Assembly: GCA_031362405.1 (NCBI GenBank)
Contig: JANLSO010000056.1
Coordinates: 2,981-66,980 of the forward strand
Direction: 5' to 3'
From: Thermoleophilia bacterium
GTDB taxonomy: Bacteria; Actinomycetota; Thermoleophilia; Miltoncostaeales; Miltoncostaeaceae
Length of the DNA stretch: 64,000 bases
Shown here: positions 15,761 to 62,749 of the stretch, piece after piece
How positions within the stretch are numbered: the first letter of the stretch is position 1
Layout: each line of letters begins with the position of its first letter
Notes under the pieces: generated by a model
Databases searched by the model: none
Seen by the model: the letters and a program-made list of their open reading frames with translations, nothing else
Told to the model about the DNA's origin: nothing
Translations under genes and position numbers: made by a program

Positions 15761-16603
15761 ATGATCATCTGCCCGGGTAACGGCACGTTGACGGTCGTTA
15801 AGCAGGTCGACCATCAGAGGCAGTGCGGAGTCTTCGCGCGGGCCTGGGGCAACGAGGAGTTCTCGCGACCCCCGGCCTACGACGACCTGATCGCCGCGGC
15901 CGAGATTCACGACGAGGGCTGGCGGACCTGGGAAGAGCACCCGTGCGTCGATGCAGCCGGGCGCCCGGTCGACTTCCCCGATCTCGCCCGAGACGACCAC
16001 ATCCCCCTCTACGAGCGGGGAATCCGCGCGGCGGTTGACGCCGGGCCGCGCGTCGGCCTGATCGTGAGCCTGCACGGGCAGGGTCTGTACGAGAAGCGCC
16101 TGGGCCTCGATGGCGCAGTACCCGCACGCGAGACCCGACCGGCAGCGGAGCAGGTCTTTCTCGCGACCCAAGACGACCTTCAGGTGGGTCTCCGGGCTCA
16201 GATCGACGGCCCTGACGTCGCGGAGTGGGCGTGGGCGGGCTTCCGGCTGCTCCAGGCCTGGGACGCACTCAGCCTCTACCTCACCTGGCGTGGTCTGCCG
16301 CGAGGCGCGACGTGGACGCTGCCGCGCGTCCCGAGATACGTCGGTGACGACGGGGTAGAGGTGCGGCTACGACCCGCAGATGCGCACAGATCGGTGCCGG
16401 GCACCGATCTGTGCGCATCTGCGTGCACCGTCGACCCCTGGCCCTTTCGGGGCGACCTCGTGGAGGCTCCCGTGGCCATGCGAGCCATCCCCGATCGCAC
16501 GTACGCCAACGACAGCGATCTCGCCGAAGAACTCGATCGGCAACCGTCGAGGGTCTGGTCGCTCGCGTTGCATCCCGTCCCTCACAAGCCCCGCTCATCG
16601 TGA
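15761..16603 (+). CDS. DUF3891-family protein carrying an internal palindrome
   Basis: 280 aa. QVDHQRQCGVFARAWGN, EIHDEGWRTWE and VDPWPF blocks resemble DUF3891. Codons for ADAHRSVPGTDLCASA are contributed by the 47-nt palindrome at 16376-16422. Confidence 0.6.
   Translation: MIICPGNGTLTVVKQVDHQRQCGVFARAWGNEEFSRPPAYDDLIAAAEIHDEGWRTWEEHPCVDAAGRPVDFPDLARDDHIPLYERGIRAAVDAGPRVGLIVSLHGQGLYEKRLGLDGAVPARETRPAAEQVFLATQDDLQVGLRAQIDGPDVAEWAWAGFRLLQAWDALSLYLTWRGLPRGATWTLPRVPRYVGDDGVEVRLRPADAHRSVPGTDLCASACTVDPWPFRGDLVEAPVAMRAIPDRTYANDSDLAEELDRQPSRVWSLALHPVPHKPRSS
16376..16422. repeat. 47-nt perfect palindrome (23+1+23) inside the DUF3891 CDS
   Basis: GCAGATGCGCACAGATCGGTGCC-G-GGCACCGATCTGTGCGCATCTGC. 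Its inner 35 nt match the palindrome at 24033-24067 apart from one symmetric position pair. Confidence 0.95.
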
Positions 16604-16618
16604 CTGCGAGCAGTCGTT

Positions 16619-16650
16619 GTCAACATCCGGTGCGCGCACCGGATGTTGAC
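16619..16650. repeat. 32-nt perfect palindrome between convergent genes (terminator-like position)
   Basis: GTCAACATCCGGTGCG/CGCACCGGATGTTGAC. Lies 16 nt after the DUF3891 stop and about 90 nt from the convergent DUF429 gene end. Arm sequence is related to 62709-62749. Confidence 0.9.
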
Positions 16651-16742
16651 TTCGTGATCGGCGGCACAACGTGTTGGGTGTTGAGGTGGGCGGCGTGCGG
16701 GGTTGGCGCGGCCTCGTGACGCGCATTGTGATGACCCGCCTG

Positions 16743-17552
16743 TTAGCGCGGGTAGCTGATCGCCACCCCTTCGGCGCGCATACGCTCGACGTTGATGGCA
16801 GCCCGATCGCGCATGTCTGCGTCGGCGAGGATCGCCGTGGGAGGTTCGTCTCCTAAAATCAGGATGTGCTCGGGCGTATGGATCAGGCGGTGTGCGACGA
16901 GGGCGCAGGCGATTGCATCCAGACGTGCGGCGTCGGCGATGGCGTCCCAATCGTCGCGCGGCACCCCTGGCCACCAGTCACCGAGTTCGACGGCCTCGGA
17001 AAGAAGGTCGGCGGCAGCAACGAGGCCGTCGGGGCGCGCCCTACCCGTTCCCTTCGGGCGATATCTCGGGGCACGCGTCCCGAGCCATGCGGCTCGGTAT
17101 GCGGCGATGCCGAGGGGAACGCCATCCTCGGGGCGCCCCCGCTGCCATGACAGCTGTCGCAGCACTGCTTCGGGAAGGGTCTCGACGAGTCGCCGCTCGG
17201 GCGAGGTGAGGGCCGAGCGCAGCGCTTCGCCGCGGCAACCGCCAAAGACCTGTTGCATACGCGCGCGCGACACGGGAAAGGCGGGCATATCCAGCCAAGA
17301 AAGCAGAGTTTCGACGGTCCGTTGGCCTCGCTCATTGGGCACATGCAGCGGCGCGTCGATCGCGAACACGGCCGGCCCGGCAGGCACCGCCGACTCGATG
17401 TCGGCGTCGGTGTCGAGGATCTCCAGACGTACCAACCGGCCAGACGGATCGATTTCGGCGAGCACCGACGGCCGCGGTGTTCCGAGGAGGTCTCTTGATG
17501 GCATCAGATGCAGGCCCAGCGCAATCACGACGTGGCCTTCGGCGACGGCCAA
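16743..17552 (-). CDS. hypothetical protein, possibly DUF429 (RNase H-like fold) family
   Basis: 269-aa ORF with normal codon bias. VFAIDAPL near the N-terminus and DAIACALVA near the C-terminus resemble DUF429 proteins. The assignment is tentative. Confidence 0.45.
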   Translation of the reverse strand: MAVAEGHVVIALGLHLMPSRDLLGTPRPSVLAEIDPSGRLVRLEILDTDADIESAVPAGPAVFAIDAPLHVPNERGQRTVETLLSWLDMPAFPVSRARMQQVFGGCRGEALRSALTSPERRLVETLPEAVLRQLSWQRGRPEDGVPLGIAAYRAAWLGTRAPRYRPKGTGRARPDGLVAAADLLSEAVELGDWWPGVPRDDWDAIADAARLDAIACALVAHRLIHTPEHILILGDEPPTAILADADMRDRAAINVERMRAEGVAISYPR

Positions 17553-17618
17553 CTGGACGCCGCGCCACGGCCCCGACTAGTCTGGCCCGATAAGCAACCC
17601 TCGAGGAGTGATGGCGTC

Positions 17619-17903
17619 ATGACTGCACTGCTGCTTTTACTGGTAGCTGCCCTTGCGCCGTGGATTGTGCACCTTGCCCCGCCCCGCCAGCGGCCGCTGG
17701 CCCTTGTCGGCGTTGTCGGCGTCTTCCTTCTGTTCGGCATCTTTACGAGTGCCAACCCCATCACCGCCTGGGAAAGCTGGGTTGGCCTGGCCGCCGGCGT
17801 CATCAGCGTTGTCGCTCTCTCCGCGGCCGGCGGCAGCGCAGGACCCCGTCGACCCGCGTCACGACGCGGCACCTACGATGACGACGGCGGCAGCACCGCT
17901 TAG
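17619..17903 (+). CDS. small membrane protein
   Basis: ATG 17619 after GAGGAG. Three hydrophobic segments (LLLLLVAALAPWIV, LALVGVVGVFLLFGIF, VGLAAGVISVVALSAAG). I recognise no family. Confidence 0.5.
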   Translation: MTALLLLLVAALAPWIVHLAPPRQRPLALVGVVGVFLLFGIFTSANPITAWESWVGLAAGVISVVALSAAGGSAGPRRPASRRGTYDDDGGSTA

Positions 17904-18084
17904 TCGCGGGGCGAGAGCACGCCGAAGCCGCCATCGCTCGCGGCGTGGCCAAGGCGGTCGTCGTAGGTGACGGTGGCATCAATTTGGGGGCCAGGGTGCG
18001 TGTGGTCGCGAGATGGATCGCGTCGAGCGAGTGCAGACCTCGGTCGGGTCCATTCATCGCCGCATCGTCGGTGCAGGTCGTCAC
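17900..18084 (-). pseudogene. PIN-domain (VapC) C-terminal remnant with frameshift
   Basis: LHSLDAIHLATTRTL continues after a shift at a C5 run as GPQIDATVTYDDRLGHAASDGGFGVLSPRD-stop. The N-terminal half of the PIN domain and any antitoxin are absent. Confidence 0.65.
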
Positions 18085-18106
18085 GACGGGCCGTGACGTC
18101 GGCAGG

Positions 18107-19513: not shown

Positions 19514-19554
19514 GGCGGATGAGGTTACCAGCACCCCTGTACGCTCCGCGATCG

Positions 19555-23753: not shown

Positions 23754-23768
23754 GGGTGCCGCTGCACG

Positions 23769-24041
23769 GTGAGGAGGCTCTATCCGTCCATCTCAAGGCC
23801 TGGACTGTTAGCACCGCCGGGCGTCGAACGCTCAGACATCGTGGATCAGATTCGCAAGCTCGCCGAGCTCCGCGACGCGGGAATCCTCACCGAGGTGGAG
23901 TTCGACGCGAAGAAGGTCGAGCTGCTCGCCAAGTTGGAGGGATCTGAGATCCGCACGAGAGCCAGCGTGCGGAGTGGTGGACATGACAGTCCCGCTCCGC
24001 GCTTGCACGTCTGGCGTTTCCAAATCTTCTTAGGCGCATAG
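23769..24041 (+). CDS. SHOCT-domain small protein
   Basis: IVDQIRKLAELRDAGILTEVEFDAKKVELLAKL is a SHOCT motif. The start is uncertain (GTG 23769 or 23839). An unusual 34-residue tail after the domain runs into the 24033 palindrome. Confidence 0.55.
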   Translation: MRRLYPSISRPGLLAPPGVERSDIVDQIRKLAELRDAGILTEVEFDAKKVELLAKLEGSEIRTRASVRSGGHDSPAPRLHVWRFQIFLGA

Positions 24042-24067
24042 ATCGGTGCCGGGCACCGATCTATGCG
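24033..24067. repeat. 35-nt perfect palindrome (17+1+17), twin of the 16376 element
   Basis: GCGCATAGATCGGTGCC-G-GGCACCGATCTATGCGC. Sits between the convergent SHOCT and acyl-CoA ligase genes and overlaps the SHOCT ORF stop codon. Confidence 0.95.
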
Positions 24068-24126
24068 CAGGGACTCAGGCTGCCCCCCCGGCATCCAGAG
24101 GGCTGCCATAGGAAGGACCGTTCTGT

Positions 24127-24196
24127 GAGTACCGCATTTTACGCAGCGATGAGTACCGCTTTTACGCAGTGCCGAGTACCGCTTTTCTGCAGCGGT
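24127..24196. repeat. three tandem 23-24-nt direct repeats
   Basis: GAGTACCGCATTTTACGCAGCGAT / GAGTACCGCTTTTACGCAGTGCC / GAGTACCGCTTTTCTGCAGCGGT. The last unit abuts the stop codon of the minus-strand ligase gene. Confidence 0.85.
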
Positions 24197-25725
24197 CAGC
24201 CCGGGGGCGTATCCCAGTAGGGCGCTCGCAGGAGGAACTTCTGGATCTTTCCGGTGGCGGTACGGGGTAGGGAATCGCGCACCTCGACCCGTGTCGGGCA
24301 CTTGAAGGTCGCCATCCGCGACTTGGCGTGCGCGATGAGGTCGGCCTCCGAAGCAGTGAGTCCGCCGCCGAGCACGACCAGGGCCATGACCGTCTCGCCC
24401 CAGCGCTCGTGGGGGACGCCGATCACGGCGACCTCGACGACGGCCGGATGGTCGCGCAGGCAGTCCTCTACTTCGATCGAGGAGATGTTCTCCCCGCCGG
24501 AGATGATGACGTCCTTCTTGCGGTCGGTGATCAGCAGGTGGTGCGCGTCGTTGAGTTCACCTCCATCACCGGTGTGGAGCCATCCTCCGTCGAGGGCCCG
24601 CGCGGTGGCGTCGGGATCGTCCCAGTAGGCCTCGAGCACATGGTTCGAGCGGGCGAGAACCTCGCCGTGCTCGTCGACGCGGATGCTCACGCCGATCAGC
24701 TCCATCCCTTGGCGCGAGAGCCGGGCGGCGCGCTGGTCGGGGGTGAGGTCATCCGACTCGGGCCCCGCCCGGTTGATGGTGATGACCGGCGAGCTCTCGG
24801 TGAGGCCGTAGCCGTGGATCAACTCCCACCCGAGTTCTTCCTCGACCCGTCGGATCGTCGAAGTAGGCGGCGAAGCGCCGCCGGTCATCACGCGCATTCG
24901 GCCATGCTGGGGCGTCTCCTCACCCCGCGCTCGCGTCGCGACCCCGGCCGCGAGGACCGCGTCGATCACGGCGGGCGCACACGCGGTGAGCGTCACGCCC
25001 TCGGCGGAGATCCGACGCAGAATCTCCAAGCCGTCGACCTTCCTCTGCATCACCTGGCGCGCGCCCATCGCGGCCAGGCCATAGGGGAGACCCCACCCGT
25101 TGCAGTGAAAGAGCGGCTGAGTCTGCAGGTACACATCGCGGGCCGACACTCCAAGGTGCCAGCCGAAGCTCACCGCGTGCAGCCAGAGGGTGCGATGGGT
25201 GAGCTGCACGCCCTTCGGCCGGGCGGTGGTCCCCGAGGTGTAGTTGATCGAGGCGGTGGCGTCCTCGTCCGGCTCCCAGCTGGTGGGGCGCTGGTCGCTC
25301 TCGGCGAAGAGCGCGGCGTCCGCGACGCCGTCCATCAGGATCGTCTCGATGCCATCGAGATCGCCGAGGGAGGCCGCGATCTCGGGATCAATCAGCACCA
25401 CCCGTGAGCCCGAGTGACGAACGATGTAGGCGATCTCCGTGGCGTTGAGCCGGAAGTTGATCGGCACCAGCACCCGCCCGTGGGCGCTCACGCCGAAAAG
25501 GGAGACGACGAAACGTGCGGAGTTGGGGCTGACGATCGCGACCCGCTCGCCGAGGCCCACGCCCACGCGCTCAAGCTCGCGCGCCATTCCCCACGATCGG
25601 CGCTGGAGTCCGGCGAACGAGACCTCACCAAGGCTCGCCGGGCCGGGTTCGTCGACGATGGCCACACGATCGCCGTGGAGGCCGGCGCGATCGATGAAAT
25701 CCAGCAGTGTCAGCGGAACTTTCAT
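24196..25725 (-). CDS. AMP-dependent acyl-CoA synthetase/ligase (FadD-like)
   Basis: AMP-binding signature INYTSGTTARPKGV, plus GYGLTES, WLHTGDGG and C-terminal RTATGKIQK. Confidence 0.9.
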   Translation of the reverse strand: MKVPLTLLDFIDRAGLHGDRVAIVDEPGPASLGEVSFAGLQRRSWGMARELERVGVGLGERVAIVSPNSARFVVSLFGVSAHGRVLVPINFRLNATEIAYIVRHSGSRVVLIDPEIAASLGDLDGIETILMDGVADAALFAESDQRPTSWEPDEDATASINYTSGTTARPKGVQLTHRTLWLHAVSFGWHLGVSARDVYLQTQPLFHCNGWGLPYGLAAMGARQVMQRKVDGLEILRRISAEGVTLTACAPAVIDAVLAAGVATRARGEETPQHGRMRVMTGGASPPTSTIRRVEEELGWELIHGYGLTESSPVITINRAGPESDDLTPDQRAARLSRQGMELIGVSIRVDEHGEVLARSNHVLEAYWDDPDATARALDGGWLHTGDGGELNDAHHLLITDRKKDVIISGGENISSIEVEDCLRDHPAVVEVAVIGVPHERWGETVMALVVLGGGLTASEADLIAHAKSRMATFKCPTRVEVRDSLPRTATGKIQKFLLRAPYWDTPPG

Positions 25726-26120
25726 GGCGTCCTCTCGTTGATCGGCACCCTATGCCCGGTCGATGCGCAGTTGCCAGAAGGAGGCCAGATGGACGTCGTT
25801 TCGATTCGCGACAACAATCCCTAGGGATTAGGGATTCTTCTGTCGCGTGTCTCCAAGCCAAGCTGCGTTCAAGACAAGCAACCCGAACTGACAGCTCAGC
25901 CTCGCCGGCGTAGGCGTTTCCTTGGATGAAATGGATCTCCCCGCAAACCGCACTTCCGCGCGCCCCGCCCCGATGGGGCACGTCGGCCGAGCCCTCCGCC
26001 GCGCGGGGAGTGAGCCGGGGAGCTTGATTGGGGCTGCCGACGATGCCGTGAGCACTGCTCACCGACGCAGCCGGCTACCCCGCGTGCGGTACCTCGGCAC
26101 GCACATGCTACTGTCTGCGC

Positions 26121-26372
26121 ATGTTGACCCGCCGTGTCCACGTGCTCTTCGACGATGCACGCTTCAGCAGAATCGAACGCGAGGCCAAGTCGCGCAAAGT
26201 CTCTGTAGCAGAGGTGATTCGGGAGGCTGTCGACTATCGGCTGCCCCCGACCTGGCCGAGTCGCAGCGAGGCCGGAGAGCGGATTCTCCGAGCAGATCCA
26301 ATGGATGTTCCCGATGACCCGGCGGACCTCAAGCGTGAGATCGCCGATGCGCACGACCGCTTCGGAGAGTGA
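26121..26372 (+). CDS. vapB: ribbon-helix-helix antitoxin (VapB-like)
   Basis: 83 aa. VHVLFDDARFSRIEREAKSRKVSVAEVIREAVD has an RHH pattern. The stop overlaps the downstream PIN gene start. Confidence 0.7.
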   Translation: MLTRRVHVLFDDARFSRIEREAKSRKVSVAEVIREAVDYRLPPTWPSRSEAGERILRADPMDVPDDPADLKREIADAHDRFGE

Positions 26373-26791
26373 TCGTCCTTGATACCTCCGTGCTGGTCTA
26401 CGCCGTCGGTGACGCCCATCCGCTGAAGGTTCCGTGCCAAGGTCTGATCGGTCTGATCATGCAGGGCGCGCTCGAGGCAACGACAACGCCCGAGGTGATC
26501 CAGGAGTTCGTCCACGTGCGTTCGCGTCGACGATCGCGGGAGAACGCAGTCGGCTTCGCTCGGGATTTCGCGGGCCTTTTGCAGCCGTTGACCCTTGTCG
26601 AGGACACCGATCTGCGTGCCGGGCTTGAGATCTTCGAACAGGTGCCCGAGATCGGATCGTTTGACGCGGTCCTCGCTGCCGTCGCGAGACGCATCGGTGC
26701 AACCCGGCTCGTCTCAGCGGATCGTCGGTTCGGGTCTGTGCTCGGCCTGGCGTGGGAGCAGCCCAACGCATTCTGGGAACGGGTTCGCTGA
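26369..26791 (+). CDS. vapC: PIN-domain toxin (VapC-like)
   Basis: IVLDTSVLVYA N-terminal acidic motif, EVIQEF, FDAVLAAVA and SADRRF motifs. 140 aa. Confidence 0.85.
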   Translation: MIVLDTSVLVYAVGDAHPLKVPCQGLIGLIMQGALEATTTPEVIQEFVHVRSRRRSRENAVGFARDFAGLLQPLTLVEDTDLRAGLEIFEQVPEIGSFDAVLAAVARRIGATRLVSADRRFGSVLGLAWEQPNAFWERVR

Positions 26792-26860: not shown

Positions 26861-27722
<862 letters not shown>

Positions 27723-29810: not shown

Positions 29811-32476
29811 CTACCACCGCAACCACCAAGCGGGTCTACGACTTCGCTGAAGGGTCGCGGGAGATGCGCGACCTGCTCGGTGGCAAGGGCGCCAACGTGG
29901 CAGAGATGACGCGCCTCGGCCTGCCGGTGCCCGCCGGCTTCACGATCACCACTGAGACCTGCATCGCCTACCTGGCCAGCGAGCACCAGTTCCCCGCCGG
30001 GCTCGACGACGAGGTATCCGAACACCTGGCCCGCTTGGAGACTCAGGCCGCAAAGAAGCTCGGCGACCCGGACAACCCCCTGCTGGTGTCGGTGCGCTCG
30101 GGTGCCCGGTTCTCAATGCCCGGAATGATGGACACCGTTCTGAACCTCGGCCTGAACGACCGCAGCGTCGAGGGCTTGGCCGCACGCACCGGCAACGCGC
30201 GGTTTGCCTACGACTCGTACCGACGTTTCATCCAGATGTACGGCGACGTGGTGTCGGAGGTCGACCGCGCCTATTTCGAGGGGGCGCTGACGACGTTGAA
30301 GGCCGAGCGTGGCGTCGAAACCGACGTAGAGCTGACCGCCAACGACCTCGAGGGTCTCGTCGAGACCTACCGCGGGATCTACCGCGAGCACAAAGGCGAC
30401 GATTTCCCCCAAGACCCACGCGCCCAGCTCGACGGCGCTGTCCGCGCAGTGTTCGAATCGTGGGACAACCGCCGCGCCCGCGACTATCGCCGACTCAACC
30501 GAATCCCCCACGACCTCGGTACCGCGGTCAACGTGCAGCAAATGGTCTTCGGCAACAGCGGCCCCCAGTCGGCGACCGGCGTCGCGTTCACCCGCAGTAA
30601 CGTCACCGGCGACCCGTCAGAGCCTTTCGGCGACTTCCTCGTCAACGCCCAGGGCGAGGACGTCGTCGCCGGAATTCGCACTCCCCTGCCGCTCACCGAG
30701 CTGCGCGACGTACTGCCCGACGCCTACGCCGCGCTGATCGAGACGATGGGAATGCTCGAGCGTACGTATCGCAACATGCAAGACGTCGAGTTCACGATCG
30801 AAGACGGCCGCCTGTTCATGCTGCAGACCCGCAACGGCAAGCGCAGCGCCCAGGCGATGGCGCGGATTGCCGTCGATCTCGTTGACGAGGGCCTGGTGAC
30901 GGCCGCCGATTCGATGTCGACGCTCGTCGACGCGCATCAGGTACGCCAGCTCCTGCTTCCTCAACTCGACCTCGCCAGGGCCCCGGAATCGGTGGCCTGC
31001 GGGGTCGCCGCATCGCCTGGCGCGGCGACCGGAGCGCTCGCCTTCACCGCCGACGATGCCGAAAGGCGGGCCCGTGACGGGGAGGCGGTGATCCTCGTGC
31101 GCGACGAGACGACGCCCGACGATTTCCACGGGATGGTCGCCGCCGAGGGCATCCTCACCGCCCATGGCGGCAAGACCAGCCACGCGGCGATCGTTGCCGT
31201 CGGAATGGGCACGCCCGCGGTCTGCGGGGTCGGGGCCCTGGAGATCGACGAGAAGAAGGGCATCCTGCGGGTGGCCGGGCAGCTGCTGACCCGCGGCGAC
31301 CAGATCACGATCGACGGCACCGGCGGACAGGTCTTCGTCGGCCACGCCCCGCTGGTGCCACCCGACCCGAACAACCCGTATCTCGTGCGGATCCTCGAAT
31401 GGTCGGACGAGTTCCGAAAGATCGTCGTCCGTGCCAACGCCGACACCCCCGACGACGCCGAACGGGCCCGCGCGTTCGGGGCCGAGGGAATCGGCCTGTG
31501 CCGCACCGAGCATATGTTCGCGGGTGACGATCGGCTGCCGATCGTGCGCGAGATGATCCTCGCCGACGACGAGGCAGATCGGCTCGCGTCGTTGGCAAAG
31601 CTGAGGGTCTTCCAGGAGCGCGATTTCGAGGGGATCTTCGCGGCGATGGCGGGCCTGCCGGTGACGATCCGACTGCTCGATCCGCCGCTGCACGAGTTCC
31701 TTCCCGACTACACCGAGCTTCGCCTTCGCGTCGAGCGCGCCCGGATCATCGGTGTGCCCGACATCGACGCCGACCTGCAGCTACCCCGCGTCGAGAAACT
31801 CAAAGAGGTCAACCCGATGCTCGGGACCCGCGGGTGCCGCCTCGGCATCGAGTGGCCCGACGTCTACCGGATGCAGGTCGCGGCGATCATGACCGCCGCC
31901 TGCCGAGTCAAAAAGGCATCAGGCGCGGCACCGATCGTGGAGATCATGATTCCGCTCGTTGGCTTCGAGGAGGAGCTGCGGATCATGCGCGAGCAGGTCG
32001 TCGACGTCTGCGAAACCGTCCTGGCAGAACAGGGCGAAAGCATCGACTACCTCGTCGGCACCATGATCGAGCTGCCGCGGGCGGCATTGGTCGCCGACAA
32101 GATCGCCGGCCACGCCGACTTCTTTTCGTTCGGCACGAACGACCTCACCCAGACCACGCTCGGTTTCTCGCGTGACGATGCGGAGAACAAGTTCCTCACC
32201 CACTACCTGCAGATGAACGTCATCCCCTCGAACCCGTTCGAGACGATCGATGTCGACGGAGTCGGGGCGCTGGTCGCGATGGCCACCGAGCTGTCGCGCG
32301 GCGTAAAGCCGGGCATCAAACTGGGGATCTGCGGCGAGCACGGTGGCGATCCCGACTCCGTGCGGTTCTTTGCCCAGACCGGGCTCGACTACGTGTCGTG
32401 CTCACCGTTCCGTGTGCAGACCGCGCGCATCGCAGGGGCCCAGGCCGCACTCGAGGCCGGTGGCTCGATGGCGTGA
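29807..32476 (+). CDS. ppdK: pyruvate, phosphate dikinase
   Basis: 889 aa. N-terminal VYDFAEGSREMRDLLGGKGANVAEM, phosphohistidine region GGKTSHAAIVA, and PEP-utilising C-terminus GICGEHGGDP. GTG overlaps the glyS stop. Confidence 0.95.
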   Translation: MTTTATTKRVYDFAEGSREMRDLLGGKGANVAEMTRLGLPVPAGFTITTETCIAYLASEHQFPAGLDDEVSEHLARLETQAAKKLGDPDNPLLVSVRSGARFSMPGMMDTVLNLGLNDRSVEGLAARTGNARFAYDSYRRFIQMYGDVVSEVDRAYFEGALTTLKAERGVETDVELTANDLEGLVETYRGIYREHKGDDFPQDPRAQLDGAVRAVFESWDNRRARDYRRLNRIPHDLGTAVNVQQMVFGNSGPQSATGVAFTRSNVTGDPSEPFGDFLVNAQGEDVVAGIRTPLPLTELRDVLPDAYAALIETMGMLERTYRNMQDVEFTIEDGRLFMLQTRNGKRSAQAMARIAVDLVDEGLVTAADSMSTLVDAHQVRQLLLPQLDLARAPESVACGVAASPGAATGALAFTADDAERRARDGEAVILVRDETTPDDFHGMVAAEGILTAHGGKTSHAAIVAVGMGTPAVCGVGALEIDEKKGILRVAGQLLTRGDQITIDGTGGQVFVGHAPLVPPDPNNPYLVRILEWSDEFRKIVVRANADTPDDAERARAFGAEGIGLCRTEHMFAGDDRLPIVREMILADDEADRLASLAKLRVFQERDFEGIFAAMAGLPVTIRLLDPPLHEFLPDYTELRLRVERARIIGVPDIDADLQLPRVEKLKEVNPMLGTRGCRLGIEWPDVYRMQVAAIMTAACRVKKASGAAPIVEIMIPLVGFEEELRIMREQVVDVCETVLAEQGESIDYLVGTMIELPRAALVADKIAGHADFFSFGTNDLTQTTLGFSRDDAENKFLTHYLQMNVIPSNPFETIDVDGVGALVAMATELSRGVKPGIKLGICGEHGGDPDSVRFFAQTGLDYVSCSPFRVQTARIAGAQAALEAGGSMA

Positions 32477-33447
32477 TCCGAAAGGATCTCGCCGCTCTCT
32501 GCCTTGCGGTCGTCGCGCTGGTCGCGGGGTGTTCGAGCGAGACCCCGCCCCCACCCGGCCCCGCGCCGGAGGGTGGCCGACCTTTCGCCGACTCCAGCTT
32601 CTGGAACACGCCGCTCGACGCCGACGCGCCGCTCGACCCGGCGTCCGACGCGATCACCGCTGATCTGCGGCGCCAGGTCGAGGCCTACGGTGCGTGGATG
32701 AACACCGACCGCTTCAGCACGCCGGTCTACGTCGTGCCCGACGATGCGCCGACGGTCGCGGTGTCGATGGGAATCCCGGATCCGAAACTCCAGTCACGCG
32801 TCGAGGCGGTGCCGATCCCGGAGACCGCGGTTCCGGCACGGGGTACCGATCGGCACCTGGTGATCTGGCAGCCGGGCCGCGACGTCATATGGGAGTTCTG
32901 GCAGGCCGCGCGCGCGCCGGGCGGGCCCTGGACGGCCCAGTGGGGCGGCAGGCTCGACCGGGTCTCGGCGAGTGACGGTGTCTTCGCCGCGCCGTACGGG
33001 GCGTCCGCGACGGGCCTGGCGATGATCGGAGGCATGGTCCTGCTCGACGAGGCCCGAGCGGGCCGTATCGACCACGCCATCGCGCTTGCCGTTCCCGAGG
33101 TGCGCGCCAACGTCATCCGGGAGCCGGCGCAACGCGGCGACGGCACATCCGATTCTTCGGCGTCTGTTCCCGAGGGCGCACGGTTTCGCCTCGACCCGGC
33201 GTTGGATCTCGACAGCCTGGACCTGCCGCCCTTCACCCGGATGCTCGCCGACGCCGCTCAGACGTACGGAATCGTGGTGCGCGACGTCTCGGGTGTCGTC
33301 AGCTTCTACGGTGAAGATCCTCTGCCGACCGGAAGCGGGGCCTTCGAGAACGCCTTCGGTGGGCTCCCCCCATCCGAGATCGCCGGAGCGTTCCCGTGGG
33401 AGCACCTGCAACTCCTCCCGCCGCTGGCCGACGTGAAGCGAGGATGA
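32473..33447 (+). CDS. lipoprotein of unknown function (paralog of 45216..46244)
   Basis: GTG 32473 overlaps the ppdK stop. Lipobox LVAGCS. Conserved blocks shared with the paralog: SFWN.PL, DRHLVIWQP, WEFW, GRIDHAIALAVPEVR, EGARFRLDPALD, YGIVVRD, FYGEDP. Confidence 0.7.
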   Translation: MIRKDLAALCLAVVALVAGCSSETPPPPGPAPEGGRPFADSSFWNTPLDADAPLDPASDAITADLRRQVEAYGAWMNTDRFSTPVYVVPDDAPTVAVSMGIPDPKLQSRVEAVPIPETAVPARGTDRHLVIWQPGRDVIWEFWQAARAPGGPWTAQWGGRLDRVSASDGVFAAPYGASATGLAMIGGMVLLDEARAGRIDHAIALAVPEVRANVIREPAQRGDGTSDSSASVPEGARFRLDPALDLDSLDLPPFTRMLADAAQTYGIVVRDVSGVVSFYGEDPLPTGSGAFENAFGGLPPSEIAGAFPWEHLQLLPPLADVKRG

Positions 33448-33678
33448 ACGGGCGATCTCAGGCGTGCGGGCGGTATACCTGGGCTTTCGCTCCGTCCGGT
33501 TCAAAGCCCAGGCTGCGGTAGACGCGGCCCGCGGCGTTGGTCGCCTCGGTCCTGTGCCCCAGCACCGCAAGGTCGGTTGCCCAACCGGGTGGGAGAGAAG
33601 ACATCCGCGAAAGGCTAGGCCGGCGCCGTCATCCAAGTAGGCAGAACGCGGGCTGCCCAGGGCCACCGCCGCCAGGAC

Positions 33679-33722
33679 GGGAAATGTCATAACCGGTGTC
33701 TGGCACCGGTTATGACATTTCC
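33679..33722. repeat. 44-nt palindrome (19-nt arms, short centre)
   Basis: GGAAATGTCATAACCGGTG-tctgg-CACCGGTTATGACATTTCC. Lies at the 3' end of the second DUF4143 pseudogene. Confidence 0.9.
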
Positions 33723-33744
33723 CCGGTGGCATGACGCACTGCGC

Positions 33745-34640
33745 CACAGGCTGGAGCGAGGAATAGCCCAGATGCGATCCCCCATCGGCGGCGTGTTTGC
33801 GCCTGGGTAAAGCACGAGCGCACGCGCAAAACGGTTGCCGAGCGCGGATTAAAACGTCGGAGCCCGGCCACCTGGCGGACTCTCGGTGTTGACGTGGCCT
33901 TGATCTCGATCCCGCGACCCGGCCGGTGGCGCGATCCTCGACGACGAGGTCGATGTCGTCGCCATCTCTGTCGCGGAAGTGCAACAGGTCGACCGCGATT
34001 TGGCGCCAGGTCACCTGCTTTCGTAGCTCGTTCACGACGAACATCTCCAGTAGTGCTTTGGCTATGGTCCCGGGGAGGTCGGTGGAAGATCGTGCGCTCC
34101 GACCCGCGTAGCCCGCGCCGCCAGCTCGGTATCGACCACATGGACTCCTGATCGCCGCTGGAGGTCGTCTCCCGTCGAAAGCTGGGCATTTCGCGCGATG
34201 CGACGTCGTCGATGTAACGGACGTCCGGGCTCGCCGGCGGGTTGAAACTCGTCGATGTCCCGCGGGGGATGGGAGGTGTCCAATAGGCAAAACGCTCATC
34301 AGGGAGTCCTCGAAGCTCGACGGTCGCCGTCCGCTGGACCGGCAGAACGCGGGCTGAGGGGTCCGGGGCAGAGGGTGGCCGCTCAAGTATTTTGGCCCTC
34401 GTGCCGAGAGACCTCGCGAGCGACGCACAACCGCAAACATGTGAAAGCGGTGGGAGATGACGCGAACCGACCAGGGTTCGAGCATGCCACTCGGGGATCG
34501 CCACGACTTCCAAGATTGGGTGGGCGAGGTGACGTCCGAGATACAGGTCCGCGAGCGCGGACCGAGCGGCACCGGCAGAGACCGCACCCAGGCTGACGGT
34601 CCCGAGCGGCATGAGCCGATCCCTCGGCGGTTGTTCTCCT
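33745..34640 (-). pseudogene. second DUF4143-type ATPase, heavily degraded
   Basis: Family pieces are scattered over all three minus frames: IDEFQ; VHVVDTELAA; ALLEMFVVNELRKQVTW..LLHFRDRDGDDIDLVVED; GIEIKATS; and LGNRFARALVLYPGANTPPMGDRIWAIPRSSLW. These compare with the equivalent blocks of 5218..6290. The recognisable pieces lie within 33760-34290; the upper boundary is uncertain. Confidence 0.55.
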
Positions 34641-34643
34641 GGC

Positions 34644-36785: not shown

Positions 36786-38048
36786 ATGGCTGGTGGTTCT
36801 TCAGCGCGCCCCCGCCGCGACCCCGGTCGGCCCACACGGCTCACGGCGCCCGTGACCGTCCGACAGATCAACGCTGGCGAGCCGGCGGCTGAGATCGCGC
36901 TGGGCCACGCTCGCGATGGAAGCCCCTACCGAGGCCTGGCCGCCGTGATCACCCGGGACGGCCGACCTGTCGGGTTTGTCACCCTTCCCGCCTCAGACGG
37001 GCGAGTGTCCGCTGAGCGTCTGCGACAGGCGATCGAGGATCTCACGCCGACCACCACGACCCTCCCGCATCGCAGCGTTTCGCGACCGGCCGGCACGGTC
37101 GTCGTCACGACCTGCAACTCGCCGACGTCACTCATCCGCACCATCGATTCCATTGTCCCCGGCCTTGCCGTCGACGACCGCGTGTTGGTAGTTGAAAATC
37201 GCCCGGACGGTTCCGTGGTGAAGGCTGCGCTTCACGAAGCTTTCGGCGGTGATCCCCGGATCGGGTACATCGAGGAACGGCGTCCCGGGCTCGGCCGTGC
37301 CCGCAACGCCGCCCTTGCGGTCTGCCAAACCGAGTTCATCGCGTTTACCGACGACGATGTGATTGTCGACCCGGCCTGGAGCCAGTGTCTGTTCGACACG
37401 CTCTGGAGCGATGCTGCGACCGCGGTCGTGACCGGGCTGATCGTTCCGCTTTCGCTGGAGACCCCATCGCAGATCACGCTCGAGGAGTTCGCCGGCTTTG
37501 CGAAGGGCTTTGAGCGGCGCCGCTTCGATATGGCCGATCGGCCGAAGGATCCACTGTTTCCGTTCGCTGCCGGGCAGTTCGGTTCGGGGGCGAACATTGC
37601 GTGCCGCGTATCCATGCTCCGGGGTATCGGCGGGTACGACGACGCGCTCGGCACCGGCACGCCTGCGCGCGGGGGAGAGGACCTCGACCTGTTTACGAGA
37701 GCCCTGCTGGCGGGGCACGCGTTGATCTACGAGCCGGCCGCGTTCGTCTGGCACGAGCACCCCGATACGCCGAGGCGGTTGCGCCGCCAGACCTTCGCGT
37801 ACGGGGCGGCGCTGTCGGCAACCATCACCAAGCAGCTCGTGGTCGGACAGCATCGACGTGAGCTGCTGCGGCGCGTCCCGGCCGGCCTTCGTTACCTCGC
37901 GAGCCCCGATTCGGTGAAGAACGAACGAAAGAGCGCCTCCTATCCACGCCACCTGACGGTTCTCGAATTGGCAGGGATGCTCGTCGGGCCCGTCGGCTAC
38001 CTGCGCAGCCGGGCCGCGACCCGAAGGGCGAACCGCGCGTGCGCCTGA
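36786..38048 (+). CDS. family 2 glycosyltransferase with N-terminal extension
   Basis: VVVTTCNSPTSLIRTIDSI, GLGRARNAA and FTDDDVIVDPAW (DXD) motifs. About 110-residue N-terminal region of unknown function. Confidence 0.85.
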   Translation: MAGGSSARPRRDPGRPTRLTAPVTVRQINAGEPAAEIALGHARDGSPYRGLAAVITRDGRPVGFVTLPASDGRVSAERLRQAIEDLTPTTTTLPHRSVSRPAGTVVVTTCNSPTSLIRTIDSIVPGLAVDDRVLVVENRPDGSVVKAALHEAFGGDPRIGYIEERRPGLGRARNAALAVCQTEFIAFTDDDVIVDPAWSQCLFDTLWSDAATAVVTGLIVPLSLETPSQITLEEFAGFAKGFERRRFDMADRPKDPLFPFAAGQFGSGANIACRVSMLRGIGGYDDALGTGTPARGGEDLDLFTRALLAGHALIYEPAAFVWHEHPDTPRRLRRQTFAYGAALSATITKQLVVGQHRRELLRRVPAGLRYLASPDSVKNERKSASYPRHLTVLELAGMLVGPVGYLRSRAATRRANRACA

Positions 38049-39796: not shown

Positions 39797-41661
39797 CCAC
39801 CGCTGCAGTCCTCGCGCGGACCGTCCCGCCGCGCGACTCGCCGGCGGCTCGCGTCGTTGCCCATGCCGCGGTCGTCATCGCCGCGACCGTGCTGTGGCTG
39901 GTCGCCCTTTCGCAGACCGAACTCGAGCAGATGCGCGGCCTGGGATTGATCGATGCCCTTCCTCCCACCTACTTCGCGGCAGTCCTCTTGGCGGTTTCGG
40001 GCGCGATCGCCGCGTTCATCGGCCGATCGGCGATGCCACGCGCGTTCTTCGTCCACCTCGGAGTGCTGATCGTCTTCCTGCATGGGACCACCGCGGTGCT
40101 CTATGACGAACCGCGCTACCCGTGGGTCTACAAGCATCTCGGGGTCATCGACTACATCCAGATGCACGGCGGCGTCGACCGCTCCATCGACATCTACAAC
40201 AACTGGCCGGGCTTCTTCGCCAGCAATGCTCTGCTGTCGGGAGCGACGGGTATCGAGCCTTCCGTCTACGCGCCGTGGGCACAGGTCTTTTTCAGCGCTC
40301 TCACCGTCGCGGCGACGCTTTTCGCCATCCGGCCCCTGGTCGACGACCGCCGCCAGCAGATGCTGGTCGTGCTGCTCGTCGTCCTCGGCGATTGGATCGG
40401 TCAGAACTACCTCGCCCCCCAAGCCTTGGCATTTCCGTTGATGCTCGTCGTCCTTGGCTTCTGGCTGCGGCTTGCCCCCGGCGAGGGCGGCAGCAGTCTC
40501 GCGCGGGCGACGACGGGGGCCTGGGTTCGCATCAGCGCCCGAACCCGAGCCCCTCGGCGCGTCGATGCGCGGCCGGCCGCGACTGATCACCAACGTATCG
40601 GCACCGGGGTGGCGCTCGCGCTGGCCGCCGCCCCGGCGCTGGCGGTGGTCCTCACACACCAGCTTTCGCCCATCGTGCTCATCGTGTCCACCGTGATGCT
40701 CGCGCTCGTCACCGGCCGGCGCCTGGGTATCGCGATCGCCGGGCTGGTTGCCGCAGAGGTCGTCTGGATCGCCTTGGCATGGCCCTACCTGAACAACCGC
40801 ATCTCATTGGTCGAGTTCGGCGGAGTTCCCACCGCTGCCCCGGTCACGACCGCTCCGTCCTTACCCCACGCGGACCTCACCGCCCTGTCTGCGCGTATGG
40901 TCGTCGCCGTCATGGGCCTGCTCGTCATCGCCGGGTGCCTGCGCCGGCTGCGCCACGGCAAGGAAGTCGCCGCGCCGCTCGCGCTGATCGCCGCGCCCCT
41001 GCTGATCGTGCCGCTCCAGTCCTATGGGGGAGAGGGTGGTCTGCGGGCCTACCTGTTCGCCCTGCCGTGGCTCGCCGTCCTCGCGTCTGACGCCCTCATC
41101 GGGATCGACCTGTGGTTGCGCCCTGCCGGCGAGCGCGCGACAACGCGCGCGCGGATCGCCGGAGCCATCGGGCTCGGGGCGGCGGTCAGCGTGGTTTCGG
41201 CGCTTACCCTGGTGGCCTACTTCGGCCTCGAGTTGGAGAACTACGTGGGCTCGGAAGACGTGCGCGCCAGCCGCTGGTTCGAGCAGACGGCGCCCGACGG
41301 TGCCGTGCTCGCCTTCCTGGCGCCCGGGTTTCCCGAGCGTATCGCCGGGCGCTACGCCGAGCTCGCGGTGAGTGCCTCATCGTTCAGCCCGTCGTTGACC
41401 GAGGACCCGTACACGCGGAATCGACTTCTTCGACGATCGACGCGGATGGAGGCCATCCGCGGGTTGATGAACGTCCTGCCGCAACGCGATCGCTACCTCG
41501 CGATCGGGCCGAGCCAGACTCGGCCGGTCGAGTTGCACGGCGTCCTGCCACGCGATGTCACTGCAGCGATCCCCCGCGAGCTGCGGGCGGCCCGCGATTT
41601 CCTGGTCGTCTACGACCGAGGCGGAACCGTGATCTTCCGCTACATCCCGGGGCGCGCATGA
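39793..41661 (+). CDS. large polytopic membrane protein, possible GT-C-type glycosyltransferase or polymerase
   Basis: ATG 39793 overlaps the previous stop (ATGA). Multi-helix N-terminal two thirds with YDEPRYPWVYKH and IYNNWPGFF loop motifs, then a soluble C-terminal region. No family confidently recognised. Confidence 0.45.
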   Translation: MTTAAVLARTVPPRDSPAARVVAHAAVVIAATVLWLVALSQTELEQMRGLGLIDALPPTYFAAVLLAVSGAIAAFIGRSAMPRAFFVHLGVLIVFLHGTTAVLYDEPRYPWVYKHLGVIDYIQMHGGVDRSIDIYNNWPGFFASNALLSGATGIEPSVYAPWAQVFFSALTVAATLFAIRPLVDDRRQQMLVVLLVVLGDWIGQNYLAPQALAFPLMLVVLGFWLRLAPGEGGSSLARATTGAWVRISARTRAPRRVDARPAATDHQRIGTGVALALAAAPALAVVLTHQLSPIVLIVSTVMLALVTGRRLGIAIAGLVAAEVVWIALAWPYLNNRISLVEFGGVPTAAPVTTAPSLPHADLTALSARMVVAVMGLLVIAGCLRRLRHGKEVAAPLALIAAPLLIVPLQSYGGEGGLRAYLFALPWLAVLASDALIGIDLWLRPAGERATTRARIAGAIGLGAAVSVVSALTLVAYFGLELENYVGSEDVRASRWFEQTAPDGAVLAFLAPGFPERIAGRYAELAVSASSFSPSLTEDPYTRNRLLRRSTRMEAIRGLMNVLPQRDRYLAIGPSQTRPVELHGVLPRDVTAAIPRELRAARDFLVVYDRGGTVIFRYIPGRA

Positions 41662-42997: not shown

Positions 42998-43879
42998 GTG
43001 AGCCCCGCCCTGCCCACGGACAGAGCACGAACAGCGATCCCTGTGGTGGTTTTCCATTCGGTTCGCGACTGCTCAGGAGAACCGATCTGGACCCTGCCAC
43101 GGGAAACGTTTCGGCGGCACATCCGCGCGATCGCCGAGAGTGGTCGCACCAGCATCAGTTTCGGCGATCTCGCCGATGGCCTCGCCGGTCGCCAGCCCAT
43201 GGCCCAGCATTCGGTCGTGGTGACCTTCGACGACGGATTTGCCGACAACCTCGATGCCGTGGCCATCTGCGATGAATACCGGCTGCACGTAAGCGCCTTC
43301 ATCACGACCGACTACCTCGGTCGTGACGCCATGCTCACCCCCGCGCAAGCCCGCGAGCTGGCGGCCCAGGCGAACGTCGAGGTGGGATCCCACACCGTCA
43401 GCCATCGTCGTCTCGACGAGCTGACACGCAGCGAGATCAACCGGGAGCTGCGCGACAGTCGAGAGCGCCTCGAGGACATTCTCTCGGGCCCGGTGTCGAC
43501 GTTGGCGTATCCGTACGGCAACTACGACGAGCGGGTCAAGCGGATCGCGGCGGCGGCCGGGTACCGAGGTGCCGCTGCCGTACGAATGGCGCTTTCGCAT
43601 CCCGCCGACGACCCCTTTGCGGTCGCCCGCCACCTCATCAGTACCCGTACCACCGACGCCGAGTTGGCCGACATCCTCGCGGGCCGGGGTCGGCTGGCCG
43701 CGCGCCACGAGCGACTCGTGACGCGCGGCTACCGCTGGGCACGCCGGGGCCGCGCGATCGCCTGGCAGGGGACCCGGCACGGGCCCATCGCGAAGCGGCT
43801 AGCCGGAGGGCCCGATGGTCGTTCCGCCGACCTCGGCGCCCGCGGGGCTCGACCCGAACAGGGAGCGGAAGAGCACTGA
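42998..43879 (+). CDS. polysaccharide deacetylase (NodB/CE4)
   Basis: VVTFDDGFADN (motif 1), VGSHTVSHRRL (motif 2) and LAYPYGNYD (motif 3). Confidence 0.88.
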   Translation: MSPALPTDRARTAIPVVVFHSVRDCSGEPIWTLPRETFRRHIRAIAESGRTSISFGDLADGLAGRQPMAQHSVVVTFDDGFADNLDAVAICDEYRLHVSAFITTDYLGRDAMLTPAQARELAAQANVEVGSHTVSHRRLDELTRSEINRELRDSRERLEDILSGPVSTLAYPYGNYDERVKRIAAAAGYRGAAAVRMALSHPADDPFAVARHLISTRTTDAELADILAGRGRLAARHERLVTRGYRWARRGRAIAWQGTRHGPIAKRLAGGPDGRSADLGARGARPEQGAEEH

Positions 43880-60162: not shown

Positions 60163-60376
60163 GCAATCGCTCTACGGCGCCAGCCGATTGAGGTGCGAGG
60201 GGCTACAACTGATGGGCAGGGAGGTCTCTCGAGGGCAGCGCCGGGGATGGCATCGTCGTAGATCAACTCCTTCTTCCGGTGGAAGTTGCCGTGCTGTTGC
60301 GAATTTCACGTCCACGTTTCGATGAAAAACGCCAGACACTCGGATCCGACGACCAAGGTGGTGCCCCATCAGCGGC

Positions 60377-61261: not shown

Positions 61262-61324
61262 GAACGGCGCCCAGCGCGGCCGGGTGGTGGCCCGCGGCCT
61301 GCCAGCCGTCGATAAAGTGCGGCG

Positions 61325-62038
61325 ATGACTGACGCTTCCTCACCCGCGCCGCTGGCCGATCGTCTGGTGCAATCGCTCGCCGAGAACCGTGCCCGGCTCG
61401 AGCAGTTGATGACCCAGGAGAGTTCCCGGGCCATCCACGAGGAGTTCCTGCTCGCCGAGTCGGGCACGCTGCCCGATCGCGAGACCCGGCTTCAGCGTGC
61501 GCGCTCGACGAGTGCCCGGGCATGGCTGCGCCATCTGGCGGCATCGGTCGCCGAGGAATGGCAGGCGGCGCCCGCGGGCCTTCACGAGCCGCTCGAGCAG
61601 CACATCATGCGGGGCATCGAGCGCTTCGAGGCGCTCAGCCTCGAGGAGGAGGCCGCCCTCGAGCGCGAGGGGTTGTCGGGCGACCCGCAGGCCAACACTC
61701 GGCGCGTGACCCTCGGCGCCTACATGCGACTGTTCGCCGAAGGCGTCGGCGAGCATGGTTCGCCCGATGGGGAGAGTGGCCCGGAGTTCGGCAAGCGCGT
61801 CACGCTCGTGATGCGTCGTGAAGCGTCGCGACGCCGACAGGTCGAAAAGGAAGCATTCGAGGCCTGGAGCGGCAGCGACATGAAGGGCATCGAAGACACC
61901 AAGGTGACCGCTGCTCCGCCCGAGACCAAGAACATCCGGGTTGTCGAGGCCGCCGCATGCTGGTCGTACGTACGGATCCTCGCCGACTCCTTGGGCGAGG
62001 TTCTCGACGCCATCCCGCCGGCACCGGCCCCGGGCTGA
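61325..62038 (+). CDS. hypothetical protein (helical, acidic)
   Basis: 237-aa ORF with genome-typical codon bias. No motif recognised. Confidence 0.5.
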   Translation: MTDASSPAPLADRLVQSLAENRARLEQLMTQESSRAIHEEFLLAESGTLPDRETRLQRARSTSARAWLRHLAASVAEEWQAAPAGLHEPLEQHIMRGIERFEALSLEEEAALEREGLSGDPQANTRRVTLGAYMRLFAEGVGEHGSPDGESGPEFGKRVTLVMRREASRRRQVEKEAFEAWSGSDMKGIEDTKVTAAPPETKNIRVVEAAACWSYVRILADSLGEVLDAIPPAPAPG

Positions 62039-62049
62039 CCACCCCCGCC

Positions 62050-62658
62050 GTGTTGACGCGCTTCGTCGACGAGCACCCCTTCGGCCTTGGCTGGATCTCT
62101 CCCCAGCCGGCCTTCATGCAGCGCTGCTCGCACGCACTCGTTGACGACGGCGGCGCGGTGTGGTGGATCGACCCCGTCGACGAGCCCCTCGGCGTCGAGC
62201 GCGCCCTGCGCCTCGGCCCCCCGGCCGGAGTGATCCAGCTCCTCGATCGTCACAACCGCGACTGCGCGGCCCTCGCGAAACGGTTCGGTGTACCGCACCA
62301 CCGGCTGCCGAAAACCGGGCCGACGGGAAGCCCGTTCGAGGTAAGGCGCGTCGTCAACATCCCCGGCTGGCGCGAGATCGCTCTCTGGTGGCCCGAACGC
62401 GAAGTTCTGGTGGTCGCCGACTGCCTGGGAACAGCCTCGTACTTCTTGGCTGCCCGAGACGCCATCGGCCCGCACCCGATGCTGCGGATGTTCCCGCCCA
62501 AAGCCCTTGGCCGCCTCGGCGCCCGACAGGTTCTCTGCGGCCACGGCCCCGGCCTTCACGGCGACGACGTTGCGGACCGGCTTACCTCGGCCCTGAGACG
62601 CTCCCGCCGGCGCATCCCCGCCTGGCTCGTCGGCCTGCTGCGCGGCCGCGGAAAGTAG
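62050..62658 (+). CDS. conserved actinobacterial hypothetical protein
   Basis: GTG 62050 inside listed ORF 61957..62658. CSHALVDDGGAVWWIDP, VIQLLDRHNRDCA and ALWWPEREVLVVADCLGT blocks resemble a conserved family of unknown function. Confidence 0.5.
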   Translation: MLTRFVDEHPFGLGWISPQPAFMQRCSHALVDDGGAVWWIDPVDEPLGVERALRLGPPAGVIQLLDRHNRDCAALAKRFGVPHHRLPKTGPTGSPFEVRRVVNIPGWREIALWWPEREVLVVADCLGTASYFLAARDAIGPHPMLRMFPPKALGRLGARQVLCGHGPGLHGDDVADRLTSALRRSRRRIPAWLVGLLRGRGK

Positions 62659-62708
62659 ACATGCGAGCCACGAGGCCCCACCACCTGACACTTTGTGCTG
62701 CAAGATCA

Positions 62709-62749
62709 CAATGTCAACATCTGGTGCCCGGCATCAGATGTTGACATTG
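62709..62749. repeat. 41-nt palindrome (20+1+20, one G/T mismatch) between convergent genes
   Basis: CAATGTCAACATCTGGTGCC-C-GGCATCAGATGTTGACATTG. Arms are related to 16619-16650 (GTCAACATCYGGTGC) and 33679-33722 (AATGTCA..GGTG). Confidence 0.9.

Follow-up and report, generated by a model that had tools for sequence, protein, structure and literature searches.

A family of five long palindromes is described here from a stretch of 64,000 nucleotides (nt) of Thermoleophilia bacterium DNA (GCA_031362405.1, contig JANLSO010000056.1, positions 2,981-66,980 of the forward strand), hereafter termed the window, whose own numbering is used throughout. The window has a guanine-plus-cytosine (G+C) content of approximately 68%, and the homologues of three of its proteins belong to Thermoleophilia, Miltoncostaeaceae or Gaiellaceae wherever a name was given. 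A Pfam scan of about 60 open reading frames (ORFs) identified the housekeeping set of CTP synthase, UvrD-like helicase, DUF3891, Fpg, RecO, GlyQS, and PPDK. A polysaccharide-synthesis cluster of about 27 kb (34.6-61.3 kb; 34644-61261), with GT2, GT1, WecG, Wzy-like, and flippase genes, occupies much of the second half, and no tRNA genes were found in the window. The palindromes, designated c1 to c5, were detected concordantly by direct reading, by a repeat finder, and by our own palindrome scan:

16375-16423: c1, perfect palindrome of 24+1+24 nt, subfamily A, CGCAGATGCGCACAGATCGGTGCC G GGCACCGATCTGTGCGCATCTGCG
16619-16650: c2, perfect palindrome of 16+16 nt, subfamily B, GTCAACATCCGGTGCG CGCACCGGATGTTGAC
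24034-24068: c3, perfect palindrome of 17+1+17 nt, subfamily A, GCGCATAGATCGGTGCC G GGCACCGATCTATGCGC
33679-33723: c4, palindrome of 22+1+22 nt with one T/G mismatch, B-like with the centre GGTGTCTGGCACC, GGGAAATGTCATAACCGGTGTC T GGCACCGGTTATGACATTTCCC
62709-62749: c5, palindrome of 20+1+20 nt with one G/T mismatch, subfamily B, CAATGTCAACATCTGGTGCC C GGCATCAGATGTTGACATTG

All five had been claimed in an earlier note made from the sequence alone, the coordinates of which were off by at most one base. With the alternative pairing of c4 included (perfect arms of 20 nt around a 5-nt loop), the palindromes measure 32-49 nt, with arms of 16-24 nt and loops of 0-5 nt. Among the remaining palindromes of the window with at most one mismatch, our scan found no arm longer than 15 nt; perfect arms extended to 12 nt at most in 20 dinucleotide-preserving shuffles, short of 14 nt in every one. 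Folded as RNA, as the earlier note had proposed, each strand of each copy forms a single long hairpin (-26 to -51 kcal/mol, z -4.4 to -8.6), that of c1 having values of -50.6/-51.5 kcal/mol and z -7.9/-7.4 on its two strands. The G+C content of the copies ranges from 49 to 67%, being below the approximately 68% of the genome in four of the five, a composition more readily explained by inheritance of the sequence than by selection for stability alone.

The genes that host or flank the copies are as follows:

15761-16603, plus strand: DUF3891 gene, host of c1 (PF13030, E 9.5e-39)
16743-17552, minus strand: DUF429 gene (Pfam), convergent partner at c2
23754-24041, plus strand: small SHOCT-domain ORF (PF09851), a stop-to-stop open frame
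24196-25725, minus strand: AMP-binding (acyl-CoA ligase) gene (Pfam), convergent partner at c3
61957-62658, plus strand: hypothetical protein gene upstream of c5
62776-63069, minus strand: small predicted membrane protein gene, convergent partner at c5

The database gene model for the hypothetical protein has 202 amino acids, which places its start near 62050. Whilst c1 lies within a coding sequence, c2 begins 15 nt past the DUF3891 stop and ends 92 nt from where the convergent DUF429 gene finishes. In c3, the left arm takes in the TAG at which the SHOCT-domain ORF stops, and the end of the convergent acyl-CoA ligase gene is 127 nt away. The plus-strand gene that ends ahead of c4 occupies 32398-33447, and on its other side c4 abuts or overlaps the 3' end of a minus-strand DUF4143 ATPase pseudogene, which is decayed and frameshifted; c5 begins 50 nt past the plus-strand stop at 62658, with 26 nt between its own end and that of the convergent gene at 62776-63069. 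The intergenic copies were shown to be confined to gaps between convergent genes (4/4), such gaps making up about 28% of the intergenic DNA (p ~0.006, with approximate gene calls). Four of the nine non-overlapping convergent gaps are occupied, and the remaining five have no clean hairpin. No T-run follows any of c1-c5 on either strand, and an upstream A-tract is likewise absent. The placement given in the earlier note, with four copies at or between gene 3' ends, one in a coding sequence, and a T-tract at none, was verified throughout.

Kinship of the copies and their orthologous sites

The resemblance among the copies extends well beyond the ability to form a hairpin. A 35-nt core, GCGCAYAGATCGGTGCCGGGCACCGATCTRTGCGC, is common to c1 and c3, the sole difference being a C-G versus a T-A pair, changed on both arms; c2 and c5 have TGTCAACATCYGGTGC in common, amounting to 15 nt per arm; c4 and c5 share AATGTCA and the centre (AATGTCA...GGTG). 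These similarities had all been stated in the earlier note and were verified. In the centre-aligned set of sequences, A2, GGTG...G.A.C is invariant, and a GGTGCC-N-GGCACC-like centre is found in all copies; c2 has no central base, so that the spacing of the centre varies. The apical core CGGTGCC-N-GGCACCG is thus conserved in sequence, and the lower stem varies by subfamily with nearly perfect pairing. A covariance model (R1) built from the five copies and one ortholog, and run on the 64 kb with filters off, scored c1-c5 at 41-58 bits (c1 at 58 bits) against 12.7 bits for the next best match, as expected for the single dispersed family that had been claimed. No sixth or degenerate copy was found in the window, either with this model or with mismatch-tolerant motif searches. 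Each of the six sequences in A2 is paired throughout columns 9-23. Ten pairs in that range are changed on both sides, a count that is partly circular because the copies had been picked as palindromes. The compensated pair difference between c1 and c3 is non-circular, with a chance of ~1% under two independent substitutions by our own estimate. The five palindromes are paralogues of one family rather than independent hairpins, and their pairing was shown to be kept up via changes on both arms.

The copy within the DUF3891 gene, c1, lies in the sense strand 180 nt ahead of the stop. Of the proteins in alignment A1, which includes 11 homologues at 52-77% identity, only that of the window contains HRSVPGTDLCA, 11 additional residues (33 nt, in frame). 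The palindrome is also absent from the orthologous DNA of the relatives L001, L002, L067, and L068, the sequence of L001, L002, and L067 being uninterrupted at the site. These relatives include close kin, with the helicase next to DUF3891 being 90-94% identical at the protein level in L002, L067, and L068. The reading frame remains open past c1, and the conserved PWPF, V, R, and Y downstream are retained. In an AlphaFold2 model of the protein (pLDDT 89.4, pTM 0.88), the inserted residues (approximately 206-220) are modelled as coil, less confidently than any other part of the protein; strands 202-205 and 221-225 lie on either side, and the peptide encoded by c1 is hence predicted to lie in a loop. 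The outer 7 nt of each c1 arm carry the palindrome into former coding sequence; two solutions fit the alignments with L001, L002, and L067, one an insert of 33 nt and the other of 31+6 nt, the latter seeded on a GCGCAT that was already there. A palindrome nearly identical to c3 was thereby shown to have been copied into the DUF3891 gene in a recent copy-and-insert event, where it survives as a loop extension. That c1 is a lineage-specific insertion stood up to both comparisons, the 11 residues being missing from all 11 homologues and from the orthologous DNA of the relatives.

The sites of the intergenic copies were likewise found filled in some close relatives and empty in others, as regards the presence or absence raised in the earlier note. 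At the c2 site, L001 has GTCAACAACCGGTGCC C GGTACCGGTTGTTGAC (55 bits), the arms of which are those of c2 save for a compensated AT->AA / AT->TT change, with one additional base at the centre. The same site is empty in L002, L067, and L068, where the two genes abut or overlap. The c3 gap of L072, in which the ligase is 89% identical, holds CTGTCACCAACGGTGCC A GGCACCGGGTGTGACAG (26 bits, 14/17 pairs), a member with the core of c3 and quite different arms. L070, a 5.1-kb contig (99.97% identity) from a Logan assembly made independently for the same organism, has c5 in identical form. Two family members, one scoring 20 bits and one consisting of the core only, lie downstream of the orthologous gene in L077 (75% protein identity). 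No family member was found in the c5 region of L071 (75% protein identity), where synteny ends, in the distant L069 (20.8 kb; DUF3891 at approximately 52% protein identity), or in L073-L076 (ligase 72% identical). Its absence from L069 and L073-L076 indicates a family confined to a narrow clade. Within that clade, sites were shown to be gained, lost or replaced, with new copies at new sites (c1 in a coding sequence, c2 in part of the clade), and the core is conserved far more strongly than the arms.

These comparisons bear directly on the proposal that the copies are ordinary, independently evolved terminator-like hairpins whose likeness is coincidental or convergent. In high-G+C Actinomycetota, gene ends commonly have long G+C-rich hairpins that lack a T-tract; unrelated hairpins were found at other junctions in L067/L068, L069, and L070; and the 21-nt A-core occurs in long palindromes of unrelated phyla, so that the centre may evolve easily. 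Convergence is nevertheless excluded by the near-identity of c1 and c3 over 35 nt and of c2 and c5 over 15 nt per arm, and the proposal is contradicted by paralogy. It also has to contend with c1 in a coding sequence, where termination is not selected, and with arms lower in G+C than the genome; an assembly artefact is countered by c5 in the independent assembly L070. Unrelated hairpins at orthologous sites would have pointed the other way, but the relatives carry related hairpins with the same centre, or nothing. We consider independent origin very improbable indeed.

Function and origin

Terminator and promoter scans covered 15.5-35 kb (19.5 kb), which includes c1-c4. Eight canonical hairpin-plus-T-tract terminators were found against 7.8 expected from shuffles, and none of c1-c4 was called. 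Since canonical terminators are no commoner than in shuffles, another signal may be needed, and the palindromes could be taken for it: c2-c5 would be foremost functional, factor-assisted bidirectional terminators or RNA 3'-end structures, with a lineage-specific protein reading the GGUGCC-N-GGCACC RNA core and c1 being accidental. Selection for termination between convergent genes would then explain both the placement, in convergent gaps for all four intergenic copies, and the core, which is conserved at orthologous sites where the arms are variable. The overlap of c3 with a stop codon recalls the same habit of the TRIT copies of Mycobacterium, and a factor of such a kind was proposed by the TRIT authors (PMC3152330). 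Against this stand c1, in the sense strand of an intact, conserved gene; the five of nine non-overlapping convergent gaps that have no family member; and the same junctions in close relatives, where the genes abut or overlap without a hairpin. Mycobacterial RNA polymerase moreover requires a U-tract in vitro (PMC3993855). The position of c1 within an apparently intact gene speaks against the hairpin being an efficient terminator by itself, and, together with the empty convergent junctions and the hairpin-free junctions in relatives, counts against the copies being strong stand-alone terminators, which they do not appear to be. That termination is the foremost function we regard as rather unlikely.

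Two further observations concern promoters. The arms of c5 carry TTGACA, the sigma-70 -35 consensus, facing outward on both strands (62740-62745 and its mirror position), and those of c2 carry the near-match TTGACT (16642-16647 and its mirror position). A promoter reading was dropped, as the promoter scan of 15.5-35 kb gave no site and no correctly spaced -10 box was found beside c5.

The constraint might instead act on the DNA. The copies would then be double-stranded binding sites for a homodimeric regulator, a nucleoid protein or a topoisomerase reading the 6-N-6 repeat GGTGCC-N-GGCACC, with the arms promoting cruciform extrusion. The conserved part is a 13-bp dyad, a size typical for dimeric helix-turn-helix proteins, and Watson-Crick pairs prevail nearly throughout, as for a constraint on both DNA strands; the REP/BIME elements of Escherichia coli are, for their part, bound by gyrase and IHF. 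The copies are located at gene ends rather than promoters, however, their arms of 16-24 bp far exceed the needs of an operator, and the spacing of the centre is variable, with c2 having no central base. Neither is the core heptamer enriched outside the palindromes (CGGTGCC, 21 versus 20.8 expected; GGCACCG, 23 versus 16.1 expected), by which an uptake-signal-like or Chi-like word was also ruled out. A DNA-site function is, in our judgement, distinctly improbable.

The explanation that we favour, and hold to be probable, is that of lineage-restricted, REP- or TRIT-like dispersed hairpin repeats, spread by copying and tolerated, perhaps used, at convergent 3' ends. Whole palindromes would be copied to new places, as we infer from the copies and their sites, either by an unlinked enzyme acting on single-stranded hairpins, such as a Y1 transposase of the IS200/IS605 or RAYT type, or by a template-switch process during replication. 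Their perfect palindromy may be kept by selection for pairing, by template switching within the hairpin (quasipalindrome correction, a class of mutation), or by both. Survival would be largely limited to sites between convergent 3' ends. Copies there would be harmless and would probably place hairpins at the 3' ends of both transcripts, serving as pause sites, as partial terminators or as protection against 3' exonucleases.

Several results weigh against this explanation and should be given fair consideration. No transposase, RAYT (PF01797) or integrase gene was found among the approximately 60 window ORFs scanned with Pfam, and no target duplication or target motif is common to the copies beyond trivial 2-nt matches at c3 and c2. 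The divergence from L001, L002, and L067 is too large to fix the exact insertion boundaries of c1, and the difference in arms between c3 and its L072 counterpart could reflect independent insertions or fast compensated divergence, the data being compatible with both. Dispersal over the whole genome is extrapolated from five copies in 64 kb (plus 1.8 kb of L070). The wider searches are of a similar bearing. Across 596 Gb of GTDB genomes, the A-core 21-mer occurs at 10 loci, every one of them in an unrelated taxon. The A-type 29-mer had no match in a metagenome contig collection drawn from samples other than those of the close relatives, and a B-type pattern gave 21 non-palindromic loci and no family member in the same set. 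In viral contigs, likewise from other samples, the B-type two-arm pattern gave 32 chance matches, none with a GGTG..CACC centre.

As for the A-core loci themselves, four of the 10 are pattern-only matches within ORFs, and about half are longer palindromes, from Actinomycetospora, an Actinomycetota metagenome-assembled genome (MAG), Pirellula, and a Phycisphaerales MAG, in which there are several. A collection of this size contains so vast a number of hairpins that the likeness may be due to chance, and no homology is claimed. The Phycisphaerales MAG, binchicken_co203_625, has several palindromes built on TGATYGGTGCCTGGCACCRATCA (L038 6052-6084; L041 2407-2481), two of them adjacent to each other between convergent genes; they are a separate repeat family with the same 13-nt centre. 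Among the metagenome contigs retrieved with the B-type pattern, L051 has a palindrome of another type with a different centre.

A further and more speculative reading takes the conserved apex, GGTGCC-N-GGCACC on a long stem that is paired perfectly yet free to vary, as the recognition element of an undescribed Thermoleophilia factor, belonging either to a U-tract-independent, bidirectional termination or 3'-processing system that acts between convergent genes, or to a hairpin-copying activity other than RAYT. If the former were true, the factor would be extra machinery of the kind once proposed for TRIT; if the latter, it would give rise to new palindromes, within genes at times, and preserve their symmetry. 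In either event, the same 13-nt centre in the Phycisphaerales palindromes would hint at a wider, unrecognised class. We hold this reading to be improbable.

Other features of the window

The SHOCT domain is normally protein-terminal, and in the ORF at 23754-24041 approximately 40 residues more are read, up to the TAG in the left arm of c3; the stop codon that originally closed the frame may have given way to the palindrome. This ORF, c3, the acyl-CoA ligase gene, and VapBC form a segment of about 3 kb between recO and glyQ, with the toxin module at 26052-26791, and the segment is missing from L069. Two PIN (VapC-type) toxin genes were confirmed, at 10806-11207 and 26369-26791, with a small partner ORF upstream of each; a third ORF, at 9777-10220, is PIN-like by eye only, with no match in Pfam. 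On the minus strand at 11435-11797, a VIT1-family ORF covers only positions 6-88 of the 214 in the profile and is therefore probably truncated.

The surroundings of c4, 33448-34643, comprise 1.2 kb without an intact gene. They include a GNAT-like C-terminal fragment on the minus strand (33458-33604) and the DUF4143 ATPase pseudogene (33910-34270, minus strand), which is split over two frames and was recognised by tblastn against the intact paralogue at 5322-6290 (E 4e-7). Together, c4 and c5, with their common AATGTCA...TGACATT, flank the glycan cluster of about 27 kb, and the synteny with L071 stops exactly at c5; the two copies may mark the borders of a replaceable glycan island. In L071, downstream of the gene orthologous to that preceding c5, two inverted 18-nt arms, CCCGGGACGTGACATGAC ... 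GTCATGTCATGTCCCGGG, set 77 nt apart (2813-2926), are reminiscent of the TGACAT in the B-type arms. Within the glycan cluster, the AT skew falls to -0.32 at 38039-41661, over two long ORFs without Pfam hits (38039-39796 and 39664-41661) that are probably polytopic membrane proteins.

Two palindromes stand outside the family, GCCGCGCGCCACGAGCGACTCGTGACGCGCGGC at 43697-43729, inside the overlap of two convergent genes, and CGCCCTCACGCGACGCGCGTGAGGGCG at 3345-3371 of L070, about 27 nt beyond the window end; the genome therefore also has unrelated hairpins.

Comparison with known repeat and terminator classes

Rfam 15 gave no match to the palindromes, either at the gathering threshold or at E up to 5, and a literature search for REP, RAYT or REPIN in Actinobacteria returned nothing. 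By description, the palindromes come closest, among the known kinds of their phylum, to TRIT, reported by Gardner et al. (2011) in Mycobacterium as 147 palindromic, bidirectional copies at gene termini in one genome, with frequent overlap of stop codons and a distribution limited to one genus (PMC3152330). Both families are lineage-restricted within Actinomycetota, consist of sequence-conserved palindromic hairpins at gene termini, and are hence bidirectional; both depart from the canonical hairpin-plus-U-tract terminator; and the stop-codon overlap of TRIT has its counterparts here in c3, which contains a stop, and in c4, which overlaps a pseudogene end. They differ in host and number, with 147 copies per genome in Mycobacterium only as opposed to five copies in 64 kb of an uncultured member of Thermoleophilia. 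The in-frame copy within a coding sequence and the filled versus empty orthologous sites were shown here and are not described for TRIT in the text available, a comparison made by description.

The earlier note had called the element REP-like, and this was borne out as far as a short, hairpin-forming palindrome of 32-49 nt is concerned. As with the REP/REPIN elements that accompany RAYT Y1 transposases in Proteobacteria, these are short (20-40 nt for REP), dispersed palindromes, mostly extragenic and often between convergent genes, with stable hairpins, subfamilies within one genome, and no target duplications. The likeness does not include the GT[AG]G (GTAG/GTGG) head, since the copies start with GCGCA, GTCAAC, CAATG, and GGGAAA, and the palindromes are near-perfect rather than imperfect, with conservation at the apex rather than at the base. 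A cognate RAYT is typically flanked by REP, and REP elements number tens to hundreds per genome, compared with five copies in 64 kb here, four of them extragenic. The resemblance would thus be one of function only.

Rickettsia palindromic elements (RPE) are the parallel for c1, being selfish palindromic repeats that insert in frame into coding genes and add a tolerated peptide (here, 11 residues). They are, in contrast, 100-150 bp long, unrelated in sequence, and found in alpha-proteobacterial endosymbionts, whereas the present copies are 32-49 nt and mostly intergenic. The likeness to a miniature inverted-repeat transposable element (MITE), which the earlier note had also suggested, did not hold. 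Bacterial MITEs such as Correia, ERIC, and Nezha are likewise small, non-autonomous, and dispersed; they end in inverted repeats and have in some cases been recruited as terminators or as sites of RNA processing. They have an internal segment between terminal inverted repeats, as well as target-site duplications, while the arms here meet at a loop of 0-5 nt in a single hairpin with no internal segment, shared target duplication or target motif, and a MITE was ruled out. Canonical intrinsic terminators were also set aside. These too are stable, G+C-containing hairpins close downstream of stop codons and between convergent genes, but no copy has the defining U-rich tract (canonically 7-9 nt), stem length is two to four times the usual, and the copies are paralogues of each other.

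The palindromes bear on how transcripts end in high-G+C Actinomycetota that lack canonical terminators, and the combination of a conserved core with variable stems makes the requirement for the core testable. Families of this kind may also serve as annotation markers, flagging gene ends, explaining odd in-frame insertions such as the 11 additional residues of DUF3891, and marking breaks in synteny. A known theme, that of REP and TRIT, is hereby extended to Thermoleophilia on the basis of a handful of copies from one uncultured, soil-type lineage, and no new theme is opened. The palindromes are a new family in a known class, that of lineage-specific palindromic repeats at gene ends. Of most interest in this family are the copy placed in frame within a gene and the joining of a conserved apex to a variable stem.

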